In this document: piece after piece, positions 9,666 to 63,720 of the stretch
How the letters are laid out: the number at the start of each line of letters is the position of its first letter
How positions within the stretch are numbered: the first letter of the stretch is position 1
Sequence record: PZ026127.1
DNA length: 64,000 nt
Origin: a phage
Reading direction: 5' to 3' (one strand)
The notes under the pieces: generated by a model
Told to the model about the DNA's origin: nothing
The model's database searches: none
Seen by the model: only the letters and a program-made list of their open reading frames with translations
Position numbers and translations under genes: made by a program

Positions 9666-9694
9666 GTTTACATCTCCTGTAGGCGTGATACTAT
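9666..9694 (+). promoter_or_regulatory. early promoter (GTTTAC ... TGaTACTAT)
   Basis: -35 GTTTAC, 17 nt spacer, extended -10, followed by CCTATCAAC box. Confidence 0.5.
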
Positions 9695-9718
9695 AGACCT
9701 ATCAACTTGGAGAACAAA

Positions 9719-10613: not shown

Positions 10614-10642
10614 GTTTACAACGGTCTATGGTAGTGATACTA
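10614..10642 (+). promoter_or_regulatory. early promoter
   Basis: GTTTAC at 10614, TGATACTAT extended -10, then CCTATCAAC box. Confidence 0.5.
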
Positions 10643-10671
10643 TGGACCTATCAACTACCGAGGAGAACATT

Positions 10672-10965
10672 ATGAAAAAGTTATTAATCGCAGCAATCCT
10701 TACAGTAGCATCATGTGGCACAGCTCCAGTTACGGCTGGATTGGATAAAGACCTTTGTGAATGGTCTATGACTGCAGACCAAGAATCGGTTGAACATCAG
10801 ATTTATGCCGATATCATGAACATCACTAAACGCGACCGCCCTGATATGGCTAAAGAAGTGTCAGACCAATTAGCTTCAGGTGGTGTTATGCAATATAACT
10901 GGAATTTGTATTGTGATGCCAATTTCGATAACAAAAATATCGTTAAAGAGGTGACAGGTGAATAA
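10672..10965 (+). CDS. secreted/lipoprotein-like small protein (possible spackle-type periplasmic protein)
   Basis: 97 aa from ATG 10672 after GAGGAGAA; signal peptide MKKLLIAAILTVASCG; lies in the 41-61 interval where T4 has sp. Confidence 0.5.
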   Translation: MKKLLIAAILTVASCGTAPVTAGLDKDLCEWSMTADQESVEHQIYADIMNITKRDRPDMAKEVSDQLASGGVMQYNWNLYCDANFDNKNIVKEVTGE

Positions 10966-16416: not shown

Positions 16417-16471
16417 AGTTTTACACCTCCTCCCTTCATGTTATAATGACCTCTAAATCACCGGAGGTCAT

Positions 16472-17041
16472 ATGAACATCGAACAAAAATGTCTTTATCA
16501 AGACCGAATCAATTCCAAATTCTCAAAACACGAACAGAATCTTTTAGAAAAATGTCTGGATGCTAAAAAAGACCCTAACTTCCATTACGACCTTGACAAA
16601 CTGGTTCGCAAGCATGTTACTTCAGCGGTTCCAGTAGAGTTGTATCGTGGGATTACCACCAGAGAACTTGAGCAATTAGAGCTCCTTTCAGTAGGTTGTC
16701 AATGGTCTCCTGGTCGAGTTACTTCTTTTAGTACACAATACTCTCAGGCTCGTCAATTCGCAGGGGCATGGGAATATGGAACCAAAACCATTTTAAGTCT
16801 CAGGAATGCACCGTTCATTTTCGACTACTACAATCATGCTATCGACCTTGTTCTTGCAGGGAATGTGGATGAGCTTGAAATAGATGAAACCCGTATTGAC
16901 CTCTATGATATGGTTGAAACTGAATGTGAGTTCATGGTCTCCAGCCTATCAAGATTTGAGATTGTTGAAATCGAAACCGTCAAAAGGGACCCGTACGAAA
17001 TCGAGTACAAAACAATTCATTTAAAAATGTTGGATTTTTAG
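16472..17041 (+). CDS. ADP-ribosyltransferase, ModA/ModB family (R-S-E class)
   Basis: 189 aa; LYRG (Arg), SFSTQ (STS) and ECEF (E-x-E) motifs in the expected order. Confidence 0.7.
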   Translation: MNIEQKCLYQDRINSKFSKHEQNLLEKCLDAKKDPNFHYDLDKLVRKHVTSAVPVELYRGITTRELEQLELLSVGCQWSPGRVTSFSTQYSQARQFAGAWEYGTKTILSLRNAPFIFDYYNHAIDLVLAGNVDELEIDETRIDLYDMVETECEFMVSSLSRFEIVEIETVKRDPYEIEYKTIHLKMLDF

Positions 17042-17778: not shown

Positions 17779-17808
17779 TGTTTACTTTACCGAGCAACAT
17801 GATACTAT
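17779..17808 (+). promoter_or_regulatory. early promoter
   Basis: GTTTAC ... TGATACTAT with downstream CCTATCAGC box. Confidence 0.5.
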
Positions 17809-21148: not shown

Positions 21149-21179
21149 TGTTTACTTCTCCTCATGACATGATATTATC
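21149..21179 (+). promoter_or_regulatory. early promoter with embedded inverted repeat
   Basis: GTTTAC, TGATATTAT; CTCCTCATG in spacer pairs with CATGAGGAG at the RBS. Confidence 0.5.
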
Positions 21180-21205
21180 TACCCTATCAACATGAGGAGA
21201 ACAAA

Positions 21206-21715
21206 ATGAAAATTTATCGAGTGGAGTCATCGTTCAGTATCTTAGATAACAGCGATGTTATAGCAATCACTCACCAACAGTGCCGCCAATTAACACCGTA
21301 TAGAGGCTCGTTTGATGAATGGAGCGAAGGTTGGTTATTAGAAGTAGGTTTCGACAAACCTAATTTTAGACACCACCATACCAATAATAAAAATATTCCA
21401 CTACCAGGTCAAGACAAGTTGTTGGTGGAAAATTCTAATAAAACCATTCGAACTAAGTGGAACCAGCCTGATTATGAAGGCTGTGATGATTATATTCCAG
21501 GTTGGTTTGTTAATCTCTACCATTTTGCTTTTGCCAGTGAGTATGATATGATGCGCTGGTTCACTCGTGAAGAGCGTGAAGAATTATCTTCTAAAGGATT
21601 CTATCTTGCCGTTTACGAAATCCCTGAAGATGAGGTTGTCATTGGTGGCCGCCAAGTAATGTTCCGCAAATCCCATGCTGAACTCGTAGATTTTATTGAA
21701 TTGAGAACAATATGA
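21206..21715 (+). CDS. hypothetical protein
   Basis: 169 aa ORF with GAGGAGAA RBS. Confidence 0.5.
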   Translation: MKIYRVESSFSILDNSDVIAITHQQCRQLTPYRGSFDEWSEGWLLEVGFDKPNFRHHHTNNKNIPLPGQDKLLVENSNKTIRTKWNQPDYEGCDDYIPGWFVNLYHFAFASEYDMMRWFTREEREELSSKGFYLAVYEIPEDEVVIGGRQVMFRKSHAELVDFIELRTI

Positions 21716-22260: not shown

Positions 22261-22333
22261 TAGTTTACTTTATCGAGAGCCATGTTATAATGGCTCTCAT
22301 GGAGAATAAACTTATTAACCAAGAGAGAAAATT

Positions 22334-22885
22334 ATGATTACTATCGGTGAAATTGTTCGTGTATCCAAAGAATCTCGCTCAAAAGCCGCGGGTCGTTTTG
22401 TTGAAGTTGCTGGTATTCGTACTAATTTAGTAGGTGGAATTAAAGAAGTTAAAGTGCGTATTATTCCTAAAAATGGCCAGACTGAAACTCAATTCGCTTA
22501 TGTGCATCCTAAATTCCTGGAATCAACTGAATTCACTGGACACATCGCTCCTGTAGTTGAAGAAGTTGAATCCCATGATGGGTATGTATGTGAAAGCAAT
22601 GATATCCGTGGCGTAGTAGCTCAAGACGTTGAAACTATTGACCAATCTCATGTTGGTGTTGATTTCAAATGGAAATTAGGTAAAGGTGTCTTTTTCGTTT
22701 CACCTAAACCGTTTGAATACAATTGCAAGTATGGTCCGACTTATGAAACCACTAGTATGTCCGGTTACATCACAGACCAATGGGTTGAAGAAGGTGTTAA
22801 GCTGTATAACATCGTGTTCCTTGGCACCTTTAAAGTAGTTCCTGAAAGTTTTATTGTTGAGTACGCTGATATTCATTTTGCATAA
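22334..22885 (+). CDS. hypothetical protein, paralog B
   Basis: 183 aa; C-terminal GYITDQWVEEGVKLYNIVFLGTFKVVP. Confidence 0.5.
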   Translation: MITIGEIVRVSKESRSKAAGRFVEVAGIRTNLVGGIKEVKVRIIPKNGQTETQFAYVHPKFLESTEFTGHIAPVVEEVESHDGYVCESNDIRGVVAQDVETIDQSHVGVDFKWKLGKGVFFVSPKPFEYNCKYGPTYETTSMSGYITDQWVEEGVKLYNIVFLGTFKVVPESFIVEYADIHFA

Positions 22886-22957
22886 AGTTTAAAAACAGTA
22901 TACAACAGGGTAGTAGTGTGATACTATTACCCTATCAACAAATGAGAGGAAAATAAA

Positions 22958-23176
22958 ATGGCTAAAGTTACTGTGAACTCGACTCGTGAAGAATTTGAAG
23001 ATGTTCTGTTCAACCCTGATTTAATCGTGGTTCAAAAGGAACATTCTGATACGTTTTCTCATTTATCGTCGGTTTATGTATACGAAAACCAAGGTGATGA
23101 AAACCCTATCTATGCGGTGTTCCGTGAAATCACTGCTGAAGGCACCGACTTCTGGAAGGAAACTTATAATGCTTAA
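22958..23176 (+). CDS. hypothetical small protein
   Basis: 72 aa, RBS GAGAGGAAAA. Confidence 0.5.
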   Translation: MAKVTVNSTREEFEDVLFNPDLIVVQKEHSDTFSHLSSVYVYENQGDENPIYAVFREITAEGTDFWKETYNA

Positions 23177-24067: not shown

Positions 24068-24117
24068 ATGCTTTAAGTGAAATGGGATAATATTCTCCTA
24101 CTACATGAGGAAATAAC

Positions 24118-25935
24118 ATGATTAAGAATGAAATTAAAGTACTGTCCGACATTGAACATATCAAAAAACGTAGTGGGATGTATATTGGCTCAAGTGCTAA
24201 TGAAGCTCACAGTCGATTCCTGTTTGGTAATTTTACACAGGTAAACTATGTTCCTGGACTGGTTAAATTAATTGATGAAATCATTGATAACTCTGTCGAT
24301 GAAGCTATTCGTACCAATTTTAAATTCGCAAATAAAATTGATGTTCAAATTAAGAATAACCAGGTTTCAGTTTCTGATAATGGTCGTGGTATTCCACAAG
24401 CAATGGTCACCGACCAAAATGGTGAACAGATTCCAGGTCCTGTAGCTGCATGGACTATTCCAAAGGCAGGTGGTAACTTTGGAGATGACGCTGAGCGTAA
24501 GACAGGCGGCATGAATGGTGTCGGTAGTAGTTTAACTAATATCTTCTCTGTTTTGTTCACAGGCATCACCTCTGATGGTGAGAATGAGATTACTGTTAAC
24601 TGTTCAAACGGAATGGAAAACAAAGGTTGGTCTACTAAGAAATCTAAAGGTAAGGGTACTTCGGTTATATTCACCCCAGACTTTAATCATTTCGAAGAAA
24701 ATAGCCTGTCACAAATTTATCTGGATATTACATTAGACCGATTGCAAACTCTGGCCGTAGTTTATCCTGATATTCAATTTACTTTTAATGGTAAAAAAGT
24801 AGATGGCAACTTTAAAAAGTATGCTAAGCAATTTGGTGAAGACTTTGTAATCCAAGAAACCGATAATGTTTCGATGGCATTTACTCCTTCTCCGGATGGA
24901 TTCCGTCAACTGACTTATGTAAACAATATCCACACCAAGAATGGTGGCCACCACGTTGAATGCGTATTCGATGATATTTGTGAACACCTTCTGCCAGGCA
25001 TTAAAAAGAAATACCGTGGAATTGAAGTAACTAAAGCTCGTGTTAAAGAATGCCTTACGATGGTGATGTTCATTCGTGATATGAGCAACATGCGTTTTGA
25101 TTCACAGACTAAAGAACGTTTGACCTCTCCTTTTGGTGAGATTCGCAATCATATCCAAATTGATGCTAAGAAAATTGCTCAAGCCATTCTTAAAGTTGAT
25201 GGGTTGATTATGCCTATCGTTGAAGCTGCTTTAGCACGTAAATTAGCAGCTGAAAAGGCTGCCGAAACTAAAGCCGCTAAGAAAGCTTCTAAAGCCAAGG
25301 TCCATAAGCATATTAAAGCTAACCTATACGGCAAAGATGCTGATACAACCCTGTTCCTAACCGAAGGTGATTCCGCTATGGGTCCTTTCATTGAAGTTCG
25401 TAATAAAGACCTTCAAGGTGGTTACCCATTGCGTGGTAAGGTTATGAATACCTGGGGAATGACAGCAACAGATATCATGAAGAACAAGGAACTATTTGAT
25501 ATCTGTGCAATCACTGGACTTGTTATTGGCGAACCTGCAGAGAAAACTAACTATCGTAATATCGCTATTATGACTGATGCTGATGTGGATGGTACTGGTT
25601 CGATTTATCCATCATTGCTAGCCTTCTTTAGTCAATGGCCCGAATTGTTCGAACAAGGCCGAGTACGGTTCTGTAAAACTCCGGTGATTATTGCCCAGGT
25701 TGGTAAAGAACAGGAATGGTTCTATGACGTTCCTAGTTATACCAAAGCTAAGGACTCTCTACCAAAACATTCTATTCGGTACATCAAAGGACTAGGTTCT
25801 CTTGAGAAAGCTGAATATCGTCGAATGATTCAAGACCCTAAATTTGATGTGGTTCAATTACCTGAAGATTGGAAAGAACAGTTCGAAATGCTCCTTGGTA
25901 ATGACCCACAACTCCGTAAGGCCTGGATGTCGTAA
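24118..25935 (+). CDS. 39: DNA topoisomerase II large subunit (GyrB-like ATPase), uninterrupted 39/60-equivalent
   Basis: 605 aa single ORF with GHKL ATPase N-terminus and Toprim-like C-terminal half. Confidence 0.9.
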   Translation: MIKNEIKVLSDIEHIKKRSGMYIGSSANEAHSRFLFGNFTQVNYVPGLVKLIDEIIDNSVDEAIRTNFKFANKIDVQIKNNQVSVSDNGRGIPQAMVTDQNGEQIPGPVAAWTIPKAGGNFGDDAERKTGGMNGVGSSLTNIFSVLFTGITSDGENEITVNCSNGMENKGWSTKKSKGKGTSVIFTPDFNHFEENSLSQIYLDITLDRLQTLAVVYPDIQFTFNGKKVDGNFKKYAKQFGEDFVIQETDNVSMAFTPSPDGFRQLTYVNNIHTKNGGHHVECVFDDICEHLLPGIKKKYRGIEVTKARVKECLTMVMFIRDMSNMRFDSQTKERLTSPFGEIRNHIQIDAKKIAQAILKVDGLIMPIVEAALARKLAAEKAAETKAAKKASKAKVHKHIKANLYGKDADTTLFLTEGDSAMGPFIEVRNKDLQGGYPLRGKVMNTWGMTATDIMKNKELFDICAITGLVIGEPAEKTNYRNIAIMTDADVDGTGSIYPSLLAFFSQWPELFEQGRVRFCKTPVIIAQVGKEQEWFYDVPSYTKAKDSLPKHSIRYIKGLGSLEKAEYRRMIQDPKFDVVQLPEDWKEQFEMLLGNDPQLRKAWMS

Positions 25936-31311: not shown

Positions 31312-31578
31312 GTAGCAAAATGTGGTGCCTTATTTGGATGGCCTGTATCCCAGTGATTTGCGTATGTTTTAGTTTATTGTTGTGGAAATTGGCATAAATC
31401 AGTATACATCTCCATTAATCATGATATTATAGACCTATCAACTAATGGAGATGATTATGAAAAACTTACTTAAAGCAATTTGGAACATGTTTGTGTTGTT
31501 AATGGTATTGAGCATTTTCCCAATCGTTTTTATGATTGACCATGTACGTGTATTCTTTAACTTCTGAGGAAAATATTA

Positions 31579-31800: not shown

Positions 31801-32145
31801 ATGTCTAAATTATTTTTTGGTAATCGCAACATTATGTTCTTTAAACAGATTAGCATGTCAGAAACATTTGATTTAAGTTATTCAGGCGACACAAAAGCTG
31901 TTAACCTTAAAAATTTAGCGTCTGCAGAATTTGCATTCTATCAGGACCCTGAAACTGGTTTCTACAAATTTATTAAGTTCCGCATGACTATGGACCGCGA
32001 TTATCGTGACGTTTATTATACAAGTTATGAAAGTGTTATCAATGCAATTCGTGAAGCTTATGGATTGGATTCGTTATCTCTTGACCGCCTGTATAATGCA
32101 AGCCTTTACACCAGCGGATTTATTTTAGAACAGCTACAAAAATAG
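31801..32145 (+). CDS. hypothetical protein
   Basis: 114 aa from ATG 31801 after GGAAAA. Confidence 0.45.
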   Translation: MSKLFFGNRNIMFFKQISMSETFDLSYSGDTKAVNLKNLASAEFAFYQDPETGFYKFIKFRMTMDRDYRDVYYTSYESVINAIREAYGLDSLSLDRLYNASLYTSGFILEQLQK

Positions 32146-32173
32146 TTTACAACCTCGAGAATCATGTTATAAT
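32145..32173 (+). promoter_or_regulatory. early promoter with inverted repeat flanking -10
   Basis: GTTTAC, TGTTATAAT; GAGAATCAT / ATGGTTCTC flank the -10. Confidence 0.5.
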
Positions 32174-32222
32174 GGTTCTCGTTGACTGGATAACAAACCA
32201 TTAATCTACTGAGGAAATTGAT

Positions 32223-32672
32223 ATGAATACTTATATGACTCGCCGTAACGTTCTGTCTGCTGGTGCTACTACTGTTGCTTATGTTAAGAACGGTGAATAC
32301 CAAAATGGTAAACCTTCTAAAGAAATCTCTGCTCAGCCAGGCTTCTACTTCTTTGTTAAAGGTGGAGCTGATTCTCGTGTCGTAGCGGCTCGTTTTTATG
32401 TCGGTAATCAACGTTCGGCCCAAGGGCTCGACGGTATCGTGGCTAACATTCGTAAGAAACGTTCTCAATCAGCTCGCACTATGGCAGTGAACGGTGTTGT
32501 GTATGAAGTTCTTTATGTACCGGCTTCTAAGATGAAACCTCTGACTACCGGTTTTGGTAAGGGTCAAATTGCAATGGCTTTCACTCGCAATCATAGTTCC
32601 GACCTCCAGACACTGGAAGAAATGAACCGTATGTTGGCTGATAACTTTAAATTCATCCTGCAGGCTTACTAA
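32223..32672 (+). CDS. ndd: nucleoid disruption protein Ndd
   Basis: 149 aa; C-terminal half ([10 protein letters not shown] ... [14 protein letters not shown]) nearly identical to T4 Ndd. Confidence 0.9.
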
Positions 32673-34696: not shown

Positions 34697-34736
34697 GTTT
34701 ACATCTGCTTTAAACATGATACTATAGACCTATCAA
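34697..34736 (+). promoter_or_regulatory. early promoter
   Basis: GTTTAC ... CATGATACTATAGACCTATCAA cassette. Confidence 0.5.
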
Positions 34737-34763
34737 ATAAATGAACTGAAACGGAGATACAAA

Positions 34764-48420: not shown

Positions 48421-48449
48421 GTTTACTTCCTTAAAACCCATGATATAAT
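48421..48449 (+). promoter_or_regulatory. early promoter for rnh
   Basis: GTTTAC, 14 nt, TGATATAAT; followed by GACCTCT / AGAGGTT inverted repeat. Confidence 0.55.
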
Positions 48450-48480
48450 GGACCTCTCAACTACTTGAACAGAGGTTCAT

Positions 48481-49428
48481 ATGAACGATTTAGATTTTTT
48501 ACTTCCTGAAGAAGACCAACAAAAAGATGGATTTTTACTCCTAGATTTCAGCCAAATCATTATGGCTGCGGCTTTCCAAGAGTTTGGTGAGAATGCTGGA
48601 TTTCCTAAAGTAACTACAGCAATGCTTCGACACCTCGTGTTGAATTCAATTAAGAAAAACATTAAAGACTTTAAAAAACAAGGTTACAGCCAACTGGTTA
48701 TTTGTGTTGACAACTCTAAATCAGGTTATTGGCGTCGTCGCTATTCACCTTATTATAAGAAAAACCGTGCTAAGGCTCGTGAAGAATCATTATTTGATTG
48801 GGAAGGCTTATTTACGGCAATGCATATTATTGTTGATGAGCTTGAACATAACATGCCTTATATTGTTATGAACATCGATACTGTCGAGGCCGATGACCAT
48901 ATTGCTGTTTTAACCCGAATCCTCACGGCTTTAGGCCATCCTGTTATGATCGGTTCTTCGGATGGTGACTTTACCCAGCTCCATAAATTCCCTGGGGTAA
49001 AACAATGGTCTCCAATGCAGAAAAAATTCGTCAAAACAAAATCTGGCGATTCATTGCTTGATTGCGTGACTAAGGTTGTTAAAGGTGACCGTAAAGATAA
49101 CGTCGCGAGTATTAAAGTTCGTGGTGATTACTGGTTGACGATGGTTGAAGGCGAACGTACTCCTAGCACTCGTGCCAAGGAACTTGAAGCAATTGCTCTG
49201 AATTATTATGACCATGATATAATTAAAACACTTCTTACTGAAGAACAATATGAACGTTTCTGTGAAAACCAAATCTTAATTGATATGGACTTTATTCCAG
49301 ATGATATTGTTGCTTTAATTACTGAAAGATATAATACGTATAACAAACCTTCGAAATCTAAAGTCTATCCTTATTTCGTTAAATCTGGTTTGTCTAAACT
49401 AACCGCTACAGTAGCTGATTTTTATTAA
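48481..49428 (+). CDS. rnh: RNase H (5'-3' exonuclease, FEN family)
   Basis: 315 aa; collinear match to T4 RNase H (CIDNAKSGYWRR-like, SSDGDFTQLHK). Confidence 0.9.
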   Translation: MNDLDFLLPEEDQQKDGFLLLDFSQIIMAAAFQEFGENAGFPKVTTAMLRHLVLNSIKKNIKDFKKQGYSQLVICVDNSKSGYWRRRYSPYYKKNRAKAREESLFDWEGLFTAMHIIVDELEHNMPYIVMNIDTVEADDHIAVLTRILTALGHPVMIGSSDGDFTQLHKFPGVKQWSPMQKKFVKTKSGDSLLDCVTKVVKGDRKDNVASIKVRGDYWLTMVEGERTPSTRAKELEAIALNYYDHDIIKTLLTEEQYERFCENQILIDMDFIPDDIVALITERYNTYNKPSKSKVYPYFVKSGLSKLTATVADFY

Positions 49429-51652: not shown

Positions 51653-51678
51653 GGGAAGACTTCGGTCTTCCCTTTTTG
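51653..51678 (+). terminator. intrinsic terminator (8-bp stem, UUCG loop, U tract)
   Basis: gggaagacttcggtcttccc ttttt after gene 32. Confidence 0.85.
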
Positions 51679-51688
51679 GCATTTAATG

Positions 51689-51731
51689 GTTTACAACGCC
51701 TTTAAACATGATACTATAGACCTATCAACTA
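51689..51731 (+). repeat. early-promoter cassette copy 1 (identical 43-nt promoter-plus-box unit)
   Basis: gtttacaacgcctttaaacatgatactatagacctatcaacta, identical to copy at 52401. Confidence 0.7.
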
Positions 51732-51746
51732 CATGAGGAAATAAAA

Positions 51747-52136
51747 ATGGAAATCGGTAAAACTTATGAACTTCGTCCTGAATGCATTAAAGACTTTATT
51801 GAAATGGACGAATATGAAAATAATAAAAGCATGGTCGGCCTTATCCAAGACAACGGCGGTTGGTTTGAAGTAAAGGATATGGTGACTATGGATGGCGACA
51901 AATTTGTGACTGAAATCGAATGCGCCAACGGCGAGATTTATAATGAAGTTGGGTTGGTGCCAAATTATTTTGAGTTGCATGAAGACGAGTTCTATTGCTT
52001 CCGTGAATATGTTGTGGAAGATAAAGAAATCGATGAGCCTATTGCTAAGGCCGGTGTGACTCAAATCCATTGCATTGTCACCGAACAGAACGTTGACCAA
52101 ATCATTGAACTTTTGCAAAAAACTTTTAAGGCCTAA
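51747..52136 (+). CDS. hypothetical protein
   Basis: 129 aa, RBS GAGGAAA. Confidence 0.5.
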   Translation: MEIGKTYELRPECIKDFIEMDEYENNKSMVGLIQDNGGWFEVKDMVTMDGDKFVTEIECANGEIYNEVGLVPNYFELHEDEFYCFREYVVEDKEIDEPIAKAGVTQIHCIVTEQNVDQIIELLQKTFKA

Positions 52137-52137
52137 T

Positions 52138-52398
52138 ATGACTAAAGATGATTTCCTGGATGCAGTAGAAAAAGCCAGTGAGAAATTTGAAGTGATGGGT
52201 GTACGAGTTCATAAAGACCGAAATTACGGGCTCGATATCCAAACTTATTCATTATGGCTTGTAGGTGAACATAGTCTTGTAACCACCTTAGTTATGGGTG
52301 TTGATGCCCAACCTTTACTGGTTAAATTTAGAAGTATGGAAAAAGCTACCAAAGAAATGATTAAACTTGGTAAATGGCTTGATAAAATTCAAAAATAA
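52138..52398 (+). CDS. hypothetical protein
   Basis: 86 aa from ATG 52138. Confidence 0.45.
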   Translation: MTKDDFLDAVEKASEKFEVMGVRVHKDRNYGLDIQTYSLWLVGEHSLVTTLVMGVDAQPLLVKFRSMEKATKEMIKLGKWLDKIQK

Positions 52399-52400
52399 AT

Positions 52401-52443
52401 GTTTACAACGCCTTTAAACATGATACTATAGACCTATCAACTA
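52401..52443 (+). repeat. early-promoter cassette copy 2
   Basis: 43-nt exact repeat of 51689-51731. Confidence 0.7.
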
Positions 52444-52461
52444 ATGAGTGAGGAAAATAAA

Positions 52462-52689
52462 ATGGCTAAGGTTAATATTGATATCGTTGATTTTGAATAC
52501 ACTTACGAAGTTATCCGTAATCGTTATCCTTCTTTAGTTATGACCCATATTAAAGATACTCAATTCTGTAGTATGCAAATTGAAGTCCAAGGTCCTCTTG
52601 AAGACCTTACCCGCTTTATGGCTGACGAGTATTGTGACGGTATGCACCCGGAAGACGCTAAATTTTATATGGGCTTAATTCAAAAATAA
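52462..52689 (+). CDS. hypothetical small protein
   Basis: 75 aa from ATG 52462 after GAGGAAAA. Confidence 0.45.
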
Positions 52690-52744
52690 GTTTACACCAG
52701 GCTATGGTAGTGATACTATAGCCTTATCAACTAAGGAGAATAAA

Positions 52745-54433
<1,689 letters not shown>

Positions 54434-58783: not shown

Positions 58784-59928
58784 TTGAATTATATGATAAC
58801 TTGATGGCCCTGGTTAAAAACTCGACTAAATCTAAGTTCTTCTTTAAAGACTTTCAGAGTGCGCTAGGAGTCAACTATCGCATCTTTAGTTATAACTATG
58901 CATCGTACAGTGATTGGTTGGAAGACGGCGCACTAGAGTGCCGAGGCATTATGTTTGAAATGGACGAGAACGGTCCAGTACGTATTGCTGCTCGTCCTAT
59001 GCAAAAGTTCTTTAACCTTGACGAAAACCCTCTGACCATCGGTCTAGATTTGTCACCAGAAAATATTGACCTCGTAATGGCTAAGGAAGATGGTTCTCTG
59101 ATTTCTACATTCATGGACCGACAGTATCTTTCTGTTAAATCTAAAGGCTCTATCCATTCATCAATGGTGCATGATTCTTTACGGTTCCTTCGTCTCCCTG
59201 AGAACGAGGCTTTTGCCGCACGTCTAGAAGAAATCACCAAAGCTGGGTATACCTGCAACCTTGAATATGTTGCACCTACCAACCGTATCGTGCTGGCTTA
59301 CCAAGAAACAAATCTCATCCTGTTGAACGTTCGTAATAATGAAACCGGTGAATATATTCCATATGCGGAATTGTTTAAGGACGGCGCACTGCGTAAGCAT
59401 TTGGTTGAAAGCTATGAGCTCGCTGAGGGCGATTTCGTAGAAAACATCCGTAAGCAGGAAGGCATTGAAGGTTTCATCTTTGTACTGAAAGATGGTACGT
59501 TCTTTAAACTCAAAACCGCCTGGTACAGTGCACTGCATCATACCAAAGATTCCATTAACAACAACGAACGTTTGTTTGAAGTTGTAGTGGCTGGTGGAAC
59601 TGATGACCTTCGTGGTCTGTTCAGTACAGATTCCTTTGCTATCGAGAAAATCGATGCCTTTGAACGCATCCATTTAGATTACCTAGAACAATCATTAGCC
59701 TTGTTAGAAGCAGCTTACTCTCAACTCAAAGGTCGCGACCGTAAAGACTATGCCGTTACTGGACAGCTAATCCTTAAGGACTTCCCAGGGTTGTTCTCTA
59801 TTCTTATGCAGGCGTACGTAGGCGGTATTAATTATGATACGGTCATGGACCAGATTAACTCTGTGTTCTTGAAAAATCATAAGGCCCAAATCCCTGAAAA
59901 ATATTTGAAAGAAATTGTGGTAGAGTAG
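58780..59928 (+). CDS. rnlA: RNA ligase 1
   Basis: 382 aa; YRIFSYNYASYSDW and ECRGIMFE motifs match T4 Rnl1 (gene 63). Confidence 0.9.
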   Translation: MIELYDNLMALVKNSTKSKFFFKDFQSALGVNYRIFSYNYASYSDWLEDGALECRGIMFEMDENGPVRIAARPMQKFFNLDENPLTIGLDLSPENIDLVMAKEDGSLISTFMDRQYLSVKSKGSIHSSMVHDSLRFLRLPENEAFAARLEEITKAGYTCNLEYVAPTNRIVLAYQETNLILLNVRNNETGEYIPYAELFKDGALRKHLVESYELAEGDFVENIRKQEGIEGFIFVLKDGTFFKLKTAWYSALHHTKDSINNNERLFEVVVAGGTDDLRGLFSTDSFAIEKIDAFERIHLDYLEQSLALLEAAYSQLKGRDRKDYAVTGQLILKDFPGLFSILMQAYVGGINYDTVMDQINSVFLKNHKAQIPEKYLKEIVVE

Positions 59929-59956
59929 TTTACATCTCCTCATGACGTGTTAGTAT
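59928..59956 (+). promoter_or_regulatory. early promoter with TCTCCTCAT / ATGAGGAGA inverted repeat
   Basis: GTTTAC, GTTAGTAT -10-like; spacer sequence pairs with the RBS. Confidence 0.5.
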
Positions 59957-59986
59957 AGACTTACCAACTAATGAGGAGAAAACAAA

Positions 59987-60487
59987 ATGAATATGCAAAT
60001 GATTACTAACGAAATGGTTGTTAAGGCTTTTGGTGACTCTACTGACGGCATCCAAGTTTTTAAAGGTTCTCGTGCAGTAGGTTACCTGACCGATCTTCGT
60101 GTCACTTTAGCTAAAAATGCTAAAAAGAAAATCAAGCAAAAAGAATACTCTACCCGTTATGCAGAAGAAAAGCGTGAAGCCATGCCGGAAGCTGTTAACT
60201 CTATGGTTGAGTTTCTCCAAAATAACCTTTCCAAGTACGATGCCGAGGTATTCATTAATATTAGCCAACCTAATGTTAAAATCTCAGGCATCACTTTCTA
60301 TTTGATTTGTGACCCATTAAGCGACAAGTTTAATCGCCTTGGCATTTCAAGTCCTTACCATACTGCTGAAGAATTATGTTTTATGTTTGAAACGTATAAA
60401 ATTCAGTGTGAAAATCCTAAAACGGTTCTTATTAATTCCCTGTCACGTGATGACATCATCGAGATTATTACCAAATGTCTAAATTAA
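59987..60487 (+). CDS. alc: Alc-like protein (transcription termination on cytosine DNA)
   Basis: 166 aa in the position and size of T4 alc. Confidence 0.65.
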   Translation: MNMQMITNEMVVKAFGDSTDGIQVFKGSRAVGYLTDLRVTLAKNAKKKIKQKEYSTRYAEEKREAMPEAVNSMVEFLQNNLSKYDAEVFINISQPNVKISGITFYLICDPLSDKFNRLGISSPYHTAEELCFMFETYKIQCENPKTVLINSLSRDDIIEIITKCLN

Positions 60488-63659: not shown

Positions 63660-63699
63660 GTTTACACTATGGTAGGACTGTGGTATAGTAGTCCTACCG
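63660..63699 (+). promoter_or_regulatory. early promoter with inverted repeat flanking -10
   Basis: GTTTAC; GGTAGGACT / AGTCCTACC flank TGGTATAGT. Confidence 0.5.
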
Positions 63700-63720
63700 A
63701 AACAAATGAGGAAATCGAAA

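Follow-up and report, generated by a model that had tools for sequence, protein, structure and literature searches.

The conserved box behind the -10 hexamer of Dhakavirus early-promoter cassettes is probably the start-site end of a standard T-even early promoter

The promoter module that recurs in a 64,000-nucleotide stretch of phage DNA (sequence record PZ026127.1; "the window" hereafter means this whole stretch) is very probably a standard sigma-70 early promoter of the T-even type, with the CCTATCAAC box as its start-site end, carried in cassettes that recombine. The box is real and non-random, but it is no new signal. In the arrangement that we propose, an A/T-rich UP element, the -35 hexamer GTTTAC, a spacer of 17-18 nt, TGn and a -10 hexamer would form a promoter fused to a short leader bearing a Shine-Dalgarno (SD) sequence and ATG. 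The C-C at -3/-2 would close a 6-nt discriminator, T-A-T would serve as a Y-R-Y 'start' element 7 nt after the -10 hexamer, fixing initiation at the A and favoring strong initiation, and TCAAC(TA) would provide a G-free, unstructured initial transcribed stretch. The box may also influence promoter strength and escape. The near-identity of the copies would be due to selection on the start-site positions combined with concerted evolution, by means of patch conversion and cassette-bounded indels such as those of promoter-early stem-loop (PeSL) cassettes.

Source phage and inventory of early-promoter cassettes

Dhakavirus genomes (JS98, IME08, QL01, WG01 and ABTNLS3) match the window at 90-100% identity, and WG01 shows no difference from it across the 141 nt tested. 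Judged by these sequence matches, the source of the window is a Dhakavirus, a JS98/WG01-like relative of T4. The + strand of the window is the early-gene strand. An earlier note on this DNA had estimated that about twenty intergenic regions of this strand carry T4-type early-promoter cassettes, and the estimate was a good one: a relaxed scan followed by curation, covering intergenic regions of the + strand, yields 23 cassettes with the form GTTTAC, 17-18 nt, TGnTAnnnT, short leader, SD sequence and ATG.

1466-63730, + strand: span of all 23 cassettes (-35 hexamer scan)
+ strand: -35 hexamer starts of cassettes 1-12, at 1466, 9666, 10614, 14804, 16419, 17041, 17780, 21150, 22263, 22898, 26167 and 30987
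+ strand: -35 hexamer starts of cassettes 13-23, at 31402, 32145, 34697, 37365, 48421, 51689, 52401, 52690, 59928, 61219 and 63660

The -35 hexamer is exactly GTTTAC in 19 of the 23 cassettes and has one mismatch in the other four. Spacers are 17 nt long in 13/23 cassettes and 18 nt long in 10/23, the window using 17 nt as often as 18 nt, unlike T4 (N17/18). A TAnnnT -10 hexamer is present in all 23 cassettes, and the TG of an extended -10 (TGn) occupies -15/-14 in 22 of them. As with an UP element, the A+T content at -39 to -44 is 0.74-0.96 compared with 0.60 window-wide, and an A is found at -40 in 19/23 cassettes. Every cassette is closed by the SD sequence and start codon of the downstream gene, with leaders of 11-43 nt. 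Like T4-type early promoters, the cassettes are oriented with early genes and lie 5' of them. The open reading frames (ORFs) on their 3' side are orthologs of the T4 early genes imm, sp, mrh.2, modB, modA, srd, motB.2, motB, cef, ndd, ndd.4, motA, asiA, rnh, frd.1-3 and alc, and the JS98 annotation agrees with the early-gene identity of these ORFs. The cassettes are predicted to be used by unmodified host sigma-70 RNA polymerase right after infection.

The identical cassettes between gene 32 and frd

The two focal copies of the module are located between gene 32 and frd, where the local order is gene 32, a terminator-like hairpin, the frd.2 promoter, one more ORF, the frd.3 promoter and the frd.1 promoter.

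51653-51672, + strand: intrinsic-terminator-like hairpin GGGAAGAC-TTCG-GTCTTCCC followed by T5 (terminator scan)
51689-51746, + strand: early-promoter cassette of the frd.2-like gene (sequence, cassette scan), with -35 GTTTAC at 51689-51694, a 17-nt spacer, TG at 51709-51710, -10 TACTAT at 51712-51717, discriminator AGACCT at 51718-51723, predicted +1 A at 51724, leader ATCAACTACATGAGGAAATAAAA and ATG at 51747
51721-51729, + strand: first copy of the CCTATCAAC box, spanning -3 to +6 (CC, T-A-T start element, CAAC)
52401-52463, + strand: frd.3 early-promoter cassette, with -10 at 52424-52429, predicted +1 A at 52436 and ATG at 52464
52433-52441, + strand: second copy of the CCTATCAAC box, an exact match
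52690-52744, + strand: frd.1 early-promoter cassette with the box variant CCTTATCAAC (cassette scan)

Both focal copies read GTTTAC-aacgcctttaaacatga-TACTAT-agacctatcaacta, in which aacgcctttaaacatga is the 17-nt spacer, and each is followed by a GAGGA-type SD sequence and then ATG. Their reported identity over 43 nt is exact: 51689-51731 equals 52401-52443 over precisely this length, and both flanks then diverge into unrelated sequence. The first of the two cassettes also follows gene 32 in JS98, IME08, VR5 and Bp7. The hairpin at 51653-51672, which lies 3' of gene 32 and directly upstream of the first focal promoter, produces together with that promoter the terminator-plus-promoter layout described for PeSL cassettes.

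Three further copies, given as starting at 9666, 17779 and 34697, had been said to differ from the focal pair only in the spacer. They are indeed repeated copies of the module, but the second starts at 17780, the copies at 17780 and 34697 are one base off inside the box (CAGC and CAAA), and the 34697 cassette has part of its spacer, ctttaaacatga, in common with the focal copies.

9666-9714, + strand: cassette with exact AGACCTATCAAC, downstream of gene 41, near-identical to the T4 denV promoter (T4 coordinate 65413)
34697-34763, + strand: motA early-promoter cassette with box CCTATCAAA, single copy in the window (comparison with JS98 and VR5)

Frequency, position and linkage of the box

The sequence CCTATCAAC has nine exact matches in the window, all of them on the + strand, inside a cassette and 3-4 nt past the -10 hexamer of that cassette; dinucleotide shuffles contain 0.48 matches on average and never more than 3. 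When up to one mismatch is allowed, 14 matches lie in cassettes, eight elsewhere on the + strand and six on the - strand. The box is thus tied to promoters, as had been proposed, and does not occur elsewhere at comparable frequency.

A box with no more than two mismatches is present in 15/23 cassettes, and it starts 3 nt after the -10 hexamer in 13 of these 15. The full AGACCTATCAAC is found in only four cassettes (at 9695, 31431, 51718 and 52430). The eight cassettes that lack the box have mostly TATAAT or TATAGT as their -10 hexamer. Likewise, the box and a TACTAT -10 hexamer are linked, with the box present in 10/10 TACTAT promoters versus 1/6 of those with TATAAT or TATAGT, and judged by eye the link exists in T4 as well. 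This tie fits a cassette subfamily that spreads as a unit, and it may go back to common ancestry and gene conversion within that subfamily, although a separate function is conceivable. The box is absent from five MotA-box sites and five TATAAATA sites, which are small numbers of middle- and late-promoter-like sequences.

The box in T4, RB69 and RB49

We scanned 150 kb of T4 in the same way as the window and obtained 37 early promoters. Many of them read TACTAT-acaaCTATCAACTAC or TACTAT-tacCCTATCAACTAC, and the box follows the -10 hexamer in at least 12/37. The denV promoter, which is the near-match to the 9666 cassette of the window, reads GTTTAC-atctcctgtaggtatga-TACTAT-agacctatcaactac and contains the box as agaCCTATCAACTAC. 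When the T4 promoters are anchored on the -10 hexamer, their consensus from -3 to +8 is CCTATCAACTA (C C T A T C A A C T A), with the same letters as in the window. In addition to this downstream consensus, T4 early (Pe) promoters and the cassettes of the window share the -35 hexamer, the spacing, TGn, the -10 hexamer, the UP composition and the gene context (motA, alc, frd.1-3, srd, modA/B, rnh and others).

The two phages differ in degree. The box is sharper and more common in the window than in T4 (15/23 and up to 1.4 bits, compared with about 12/37 and at most 0.5 bits), and the flavor of positions -6 to -4 is specific to each genome, being AGA (AGACC) in the window and ACA (ACAAC) in T4. 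The orthologous promoters of srd and sp have the box in the window phage and lack it in T4; an early promoter can therefore do without it.

In RB69 (Mosigvirus), agacctatcacc, ctttctatcaactac and similar sequences follow the -10 hexamer. RB49 (Krischvirus) has a -35 hexamer of the TTGACA type, yet it keeps the core of C-C or A-C followed by ATCAA (cAC-ATCAAa). The box is not lineage-specific and is part of the T4 repertoire. The view that it stands outside the T4 early-promoter consensus has to be given up, given that CCTATCAACTA follows the -10 hexamer in T4's own promoters and in RB69. The start regions of the T7 A1 (...GCC-ATCGAG) and lambda PL (...CAC-ATCAGC) promoters likewise have a C-rich discriminator end, after which the transcript begins with A-T-C. 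These promoters are unrelated to those of the window, and we take the resemblance as a lead only.

A preference for C at -3 to -1 in T4-like early promoters has been reported (Nolan 2006, PMC1524935), and unspecified 'additional regions of consensus' have been mentioned for T4 early promoters (Hinton 2010, PMC2988021). In the accessible literature on the box sequence, on JS98 and Dhakavirus promoters and on the mapping of T4 transcription start sites (TSSs), we found no paper that names the box.

Predicted start site and evolutionary constraint

The promoter name Pe133295 in the T4 record denotes the 7th nt after the -10 hexamer of that promoter. Based on the T4 Pe numbering and on published start-site rules for E. 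coli, transcription would start at the A of CCT-A-TCAAC. With the start at this A, CCT would be discriminator DNA and untranscribed. The earlier suggestion that the whole box makes up the first nucleotides of the transcript does not agree with this predicted start.

The 'start' element of Kuo et al. (2025) consists of 3 bp, Y(-1)R(+1)Y(+2); in E. coli, when centered 7 bp after the -10 hexamer, it shows 93% co-localization with the TSS and raises promoter strength (PMC12641261). The phage box resembles this element in that its T-A-T is centered 7 nt after the -10 hexamer, the position of top TSS co-localization in E. coli, and differs from it in extent, the element as defined being 3 bp long and the box about 12 bp, with CC upstream and CAACTA downstream. 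A YRY centered at nt 7 is found in 16/23 cassettes of the window, and one centered at nt 7 or 8 in 20/23. Among the relatives, a YRY at nt 7 occurs in 25/37 T4, 8/13 RB69 and 8/16 RB49 promoters. At other offsets, its frequency does not exceed 0.17 in the window, in T4 or in RB69, and it reaches 0.38 (at nt 5) in RB49.

We measured constraint by aligning each cassette to its JS98 and VR5 counterparts, which gives 43 comparisons. Identity between orthologs, by position, is as follows.

-35 hexamer: 0.97
Spacer: 0.81
TG (-15/-14): 0.98
-10 hexamer: 0.95
-6 to -4: 0.84
-3: 0.98
-2: 0.81
-1: 0.98
+1: 0.95
+2: 1.00
+3 to +6: 0.88-0.91
+7 to +9: 0.85

The core of the start region (-3, -1, +1 and +2) differs from the spacer with a Fisher p value of 2e-9, and the T-A-T positions of the start element are the best conserved of the box. 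Constraint is thus greatest on the start element and weakens along the transcribed sequence. The idea of a start element accounts for T-A-T and perhaps for the flanking C. By itself, it leaves unexplained the uniform C-A-A-C-T-A and the tie between the box and TACTAT.

Could the box be a signal in the leader RNA?

The earlier note had suggested that the box may be a leader-encoded signal (processing site, factor binding site or translational enhancer). On such a reading, early mRNAs would share a 5'-terminal tag, AUCAACUAC, transcribed from the box, which would enhance translation, bind a factor or govern RNase processing or mRNA stability. We consider this unlikely. Positions +3 to +6 are conserved above the spacer (0.88-0.91 versus 0.81; p = 0.01), but conservation drops with distance from +1, quickly after +2, and both constraint and information are highest at -3 to -1, which would be untranscribed: in a -10-anchored alignment, information content peaks at -3, -2 and -1 (C, C and T; 1.40, 1.13 and 0.92 bits), upstream of the predicted start. 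While an AUCAA start is also seen in RB49, as a common tag might be, 8/23 early cassettes lack the box, as do the sites that resemble middle and late promoters, and the distance of the box to the SD sequence and ATG varies (12-28 nt to ATG), with no fixed SD spacing.

The sequence transcribed from the box, AUCAACUA, contains no G, and its predicted mean unpaired probability in primary transcripts is 0.72, as an accessible tag would require; we found no conserved RNA structure for the box. A translational enhancer that acts by pairing with 16S rRNA was rejected, given that the longest complement of AUCAACUAC in E. coli rrsH is 5 nt and that 98.5% of shuffled 9-mers do equally well or better, a chance-level match. 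A known RNA family was rejected as well, on the basis of an Rfam gathering scan of the whole window with 0 hits to any family. By eye, the box contains no xAxxxT hexamer of the kind expected for a sigma-dependent pause element. Geometry, information content, start position and ortholog constraint instead point to a function in the DNA, at the start site, and we retain a leader role as a minor alternative.

Recombination between cassettes

The proposal that the cassettes are substrates for recombination is borne out at two loci. In JS98 and VR5, a small extra ORF at the motA locus, orf253, is flanked by two copies of a 41-bp cassette that stand 325 and 324 bp apart. The window has one cassette there, bordered on the left by the sequence that precedes the first copy and on the right by motA. 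Recombination between the two repeats would be expected to leave such a single cassette. Within each of the two genomes, JS98 and VR5, the copies are identical to each other, and between the genomes they differ, which is concerted evolution. At frd.3, the flanks of the promoter are orthologous in all Dhakaviruses and the spacer is not: it is that of the frd.2 promoter in the window and WG01 (one base off in ABTNLS3), that of the motA promoter in IME08 and Bp7, and different again in VR5 and JS98. These comparisons support the conclusion that cassettes exchange sequence, through a cassette-bounded ORF indel at motA and a spacer patch swap at frd.3. Selection alone is insufficient for the 43-nt identity of the focal copies.

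Two other differences were considered and set aside. The frd.2a/b difference from JS98 is attributed to recombination between paralogous genes rather than to cassettes, and no cassette lies at either end of the orf228/229 indel.

The comparison with promoter-stem-loop cassettes that the earlier note had called for shows that recombination of the cassettes matches the PeSL model (PMC2839356, PMC4122927). PeSL cassettes are known from RB49/phi1, T4/PST and KVP40/nt-1 (Arbiol 2010, PMC2839356; Comeau 2014, PMC4122927). The likeness to the cassettes of the window lies in the repeated composite of AT-rich region, stem-loop, early promoter, SD sequence and ATG; in stem-loops that, in part of the window's cassettes, are placed upstream of, within or across the promoter; and in copies that flank small ORFs, with indel ends inside cassettes (at the motA locus in the window). 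As far as consulted, the two papers make no mention of a start-site box. A difference is that not every cassette in the window has a stem-loop: the 52401 cassette has neither a stem-loop (z = +1.3) nor an upstream hairpin.

Of 20 cassettes folded and scored against shuffles, nine had z <= -2.3 and one more had z = -2.0. Among them, the 52690 cassette forms a stem-loop, AGGCTATGGTA / TACTATAGCCT, across the -10 hexamer (z = -2.8). Outside this scored set, the 61219 and 63660 cassettes are predicted to fold into similar stems. Canonical AGACCTATCAAC copies, both focal ones included, have no significant fold (z = -0.97 and +1.32). The idea that the box is the 3' arm of a hairpin was rejected, as only some cassettes (22898, 10614 and 52690) show this arrangement. 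Reading of the sequence places a GC-rich hairpin and a T run just upstream of the 9666, 14804, 26167, 34697 and 51689 cassettes, and the terminator scan called only that of 51689.

Overall, about half of the cassettes have a significant stem-loop, across the -10 hexamer or from the spacer to the SD sequence, with z from -2 to -5.4, and two of these stem-loops are kept in the T4 orthologs by means of different stem sequences. In read-through RNA, the stems would cover the SD sequence (mean unpaired probability 0.36, compared with 0.67 in transcripts from the cassette's own promoter).

Hitch-hiking and operator function

If recombination homogenizes the cassettes, the box could be a functionless passenger that is uniform as a result of recent cassette copying and recombinational homogenization. 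This we regard as very unlikely. Concerted evolution of the motA-locus cassettes in JS98 and VR5, the spacer swap at the frd.3 promoter, the linkage of the box to the TACTAT variant of the -10 hexamer and the genome-specific flavor of -6 to -4 (AGA in the window, ACA in T4) are all as expected for a passenger, but the consensus is common to genera whose spacers share nothing, and in the ortholog comparisons -3, -1, +1 and +2 are constrained like the -10 and -35 hexamers. Moreover, among the 15 box cassettes, 75 pairs with unrelated spacers (<=40% identity) are 68% identical at +1 to +9 and 54% identical at -6 to -1, a comparison that is partly circular because its cassettes were picked by the box. 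With all 23 cassettes, the identities are 0.46-0.49, compared with 0.34-0.36 for the flanks.

The least probable reading, to which we give hardly any weight, is that the box is an operator bound by an early-shutoff repressor, or a determinant of the response of some early promoters to Alt/ModA-modified polymerase: the mechanism of T4 early-promoter turn-off is unknown, Alt stimulation needs sequences outside -35/TGn/-10 (PMC2988021), the box sets apart a subclass of cassettes and its canonical copies contain a weak TGATA-N9-TATCA inverted repeat, but this case is purely circumstantial, with no link between the box and a protein in this analysis, no operator-like dyad or direct repeat beyond 5 bp, and an RB49-type core that stands behind different promoters.

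Implications

With the box read as the start-site end of a standard early promoter, conservation in the T-even early promoter extends through the start site, and the bases under the strongest constraint fall on the Y-R-Y start element described recently. The result is at present chiefly of use for annotation, for which it provides a map of 23 early promoters in a Dhakavirus with predicted start points. It also provides comparative cases of recombining promoter cassettes, namely an ORF indel, a patch conversion and the concerted evolution of tandem copies, which extend the PeSL picture to another genus.

One extension of this reading goes further. In its extended form, with CC at -3/-2 and CAACUA at +3 to +8 in addition to the 3-bp start element, the box is strictly linked to TACTAT and might mark a functional subclass of T-even early promoters, with a different response to Alt/ModA-ribosylated RNA polymerase or to early shutoff, or with a common 5' tag of early mRNAs. 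We think it improbable that this is so. If true, such a separately regulated class would give the finding more weight, as it would bear on T4-type early shutoff and on promoter selection by Alt.

Stem-loops across the -10 element

A strong stem-loop is present in about half of the early-promoter cassettes in the window, each of which combines a T4-type early promoter with a short leader, a Shine-Dalgarno sequence and a start codon.

Early-promoter cassettes with a strong stem-loop (window, + strand)
10614-10674, stem-loop cassette
21150-21208, stem-loop cassette
22263-22336, stem-loop cassette
22898-22960, stem-loop cassette
31402-31459, stem-loop cassette
32145-32225, stem-loop cassette
52690-52747, stem-loop cassette
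59928-59989, stem-loop cassette
61219, stem-loop cassette
63660, stem-loop cassette

The 5' arm lies within the -35/-10 spacer, and the 3' arm lies either directly after the -10 element or inside the Shine-Dalgarno sequence. Those cassettes that were folded and compared with shuffled sequences gave z values of -2 to -5.4. The stem across the -10 element is kept between genera by differing sequences, as seen when window positions 63660-63710 and 22263-22310 are compared with T4 Pe133295 and the T4 motB promoter. For one stem the arms are GGTAGGAC/GTCCTACC in the window and GGTAGAG/CTCTACC in T4. For the other they are GAGAGCC/GGCTCTC and GGGACC/GGTCCC, respectively, and the predicted energies of the window and T4 stems are alike. 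These compensatory changes argue that selection acts on the stem itself. Another compensated change distinguishes cassette 17041 from its counterpart in the related phage VR5.

At 51709-51727 and in the other canonical copies, TGATA of the extended -10 element recurs in inverted orientation as TATCA in the conserved start-site box, giving a repeat with 5-bp arms 9 nt apart. This repeat is energetically weak; with a T4-type TGGTA, pairing with the box would survive via a G-U pair. Separately, a middle-promoter-like site with a MotA box (24069-24123; TGCTTTA-N12-TAATAT) lacks the CCTATCAAC box. The leader that follows it, ctactacatgaggaaat, is similar to those of cassettes 1466 and 51689.

Cassettes in related genomes

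In the related phages JS98 and VR5, a small open reading frame upstream of motA, orf253, lies between two identical 41-bp promoter cassettes, whereas the window has one cassette (34697) and no orf253.

JS98 record 163960-164285 (segment L011), cassette pair with orf253
VR5 record 164357-164681 (segment L013), cassette pair with orf253

Since the copies are the same within each genome and differ by one base between genomes, their sequences indicate concerted evolution. At the sp promoter (window 10647-10674), the box-to-ATG segment is replaced in the JS98 and VR5 orthologues (accgaggagaacatt against aatgaggagttaaaa), despite 94% identity of the sp coding sequence. This difference appears to reflect an exchange whose break point fell inside the cassette.

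In the frd region, the window carries a single frd.2 gene (51747-52136) and JS98 a tandem pair of paralogues, frd.2a and frd.2b (L004 1048-1806). Because the alignment breaks at the gene starts, the indel appears to stem from recombination between the paralogues and not between promoter cassettes. Ahead of frd, JS98 carries two additional open reading frames, orf228 and orf229, whose junctions have no cassette.

Pairing of the Shine-Dalgarno sequence

The complete stem would be expected only in read-through RNA entering a cassette from upstream. In such RNA the Shine-Dalgarno sequence is predicted to be mostly paired, with a mean unpaired probability of 0.36, compared with 0.67 when the RNA is initiated at the promoter of the cassette itself. 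In two cassettes, those of modB (16446-16474) and rnh (48448-48483), the Shine-Dalgarno sequence already pairs within the primary transcript (GACCTC...GGAGGTC; z = -3.7 and -2.8), and T4 has a similar sequence in its rnh leader. Such pairing may place modB and rnh under translational control.
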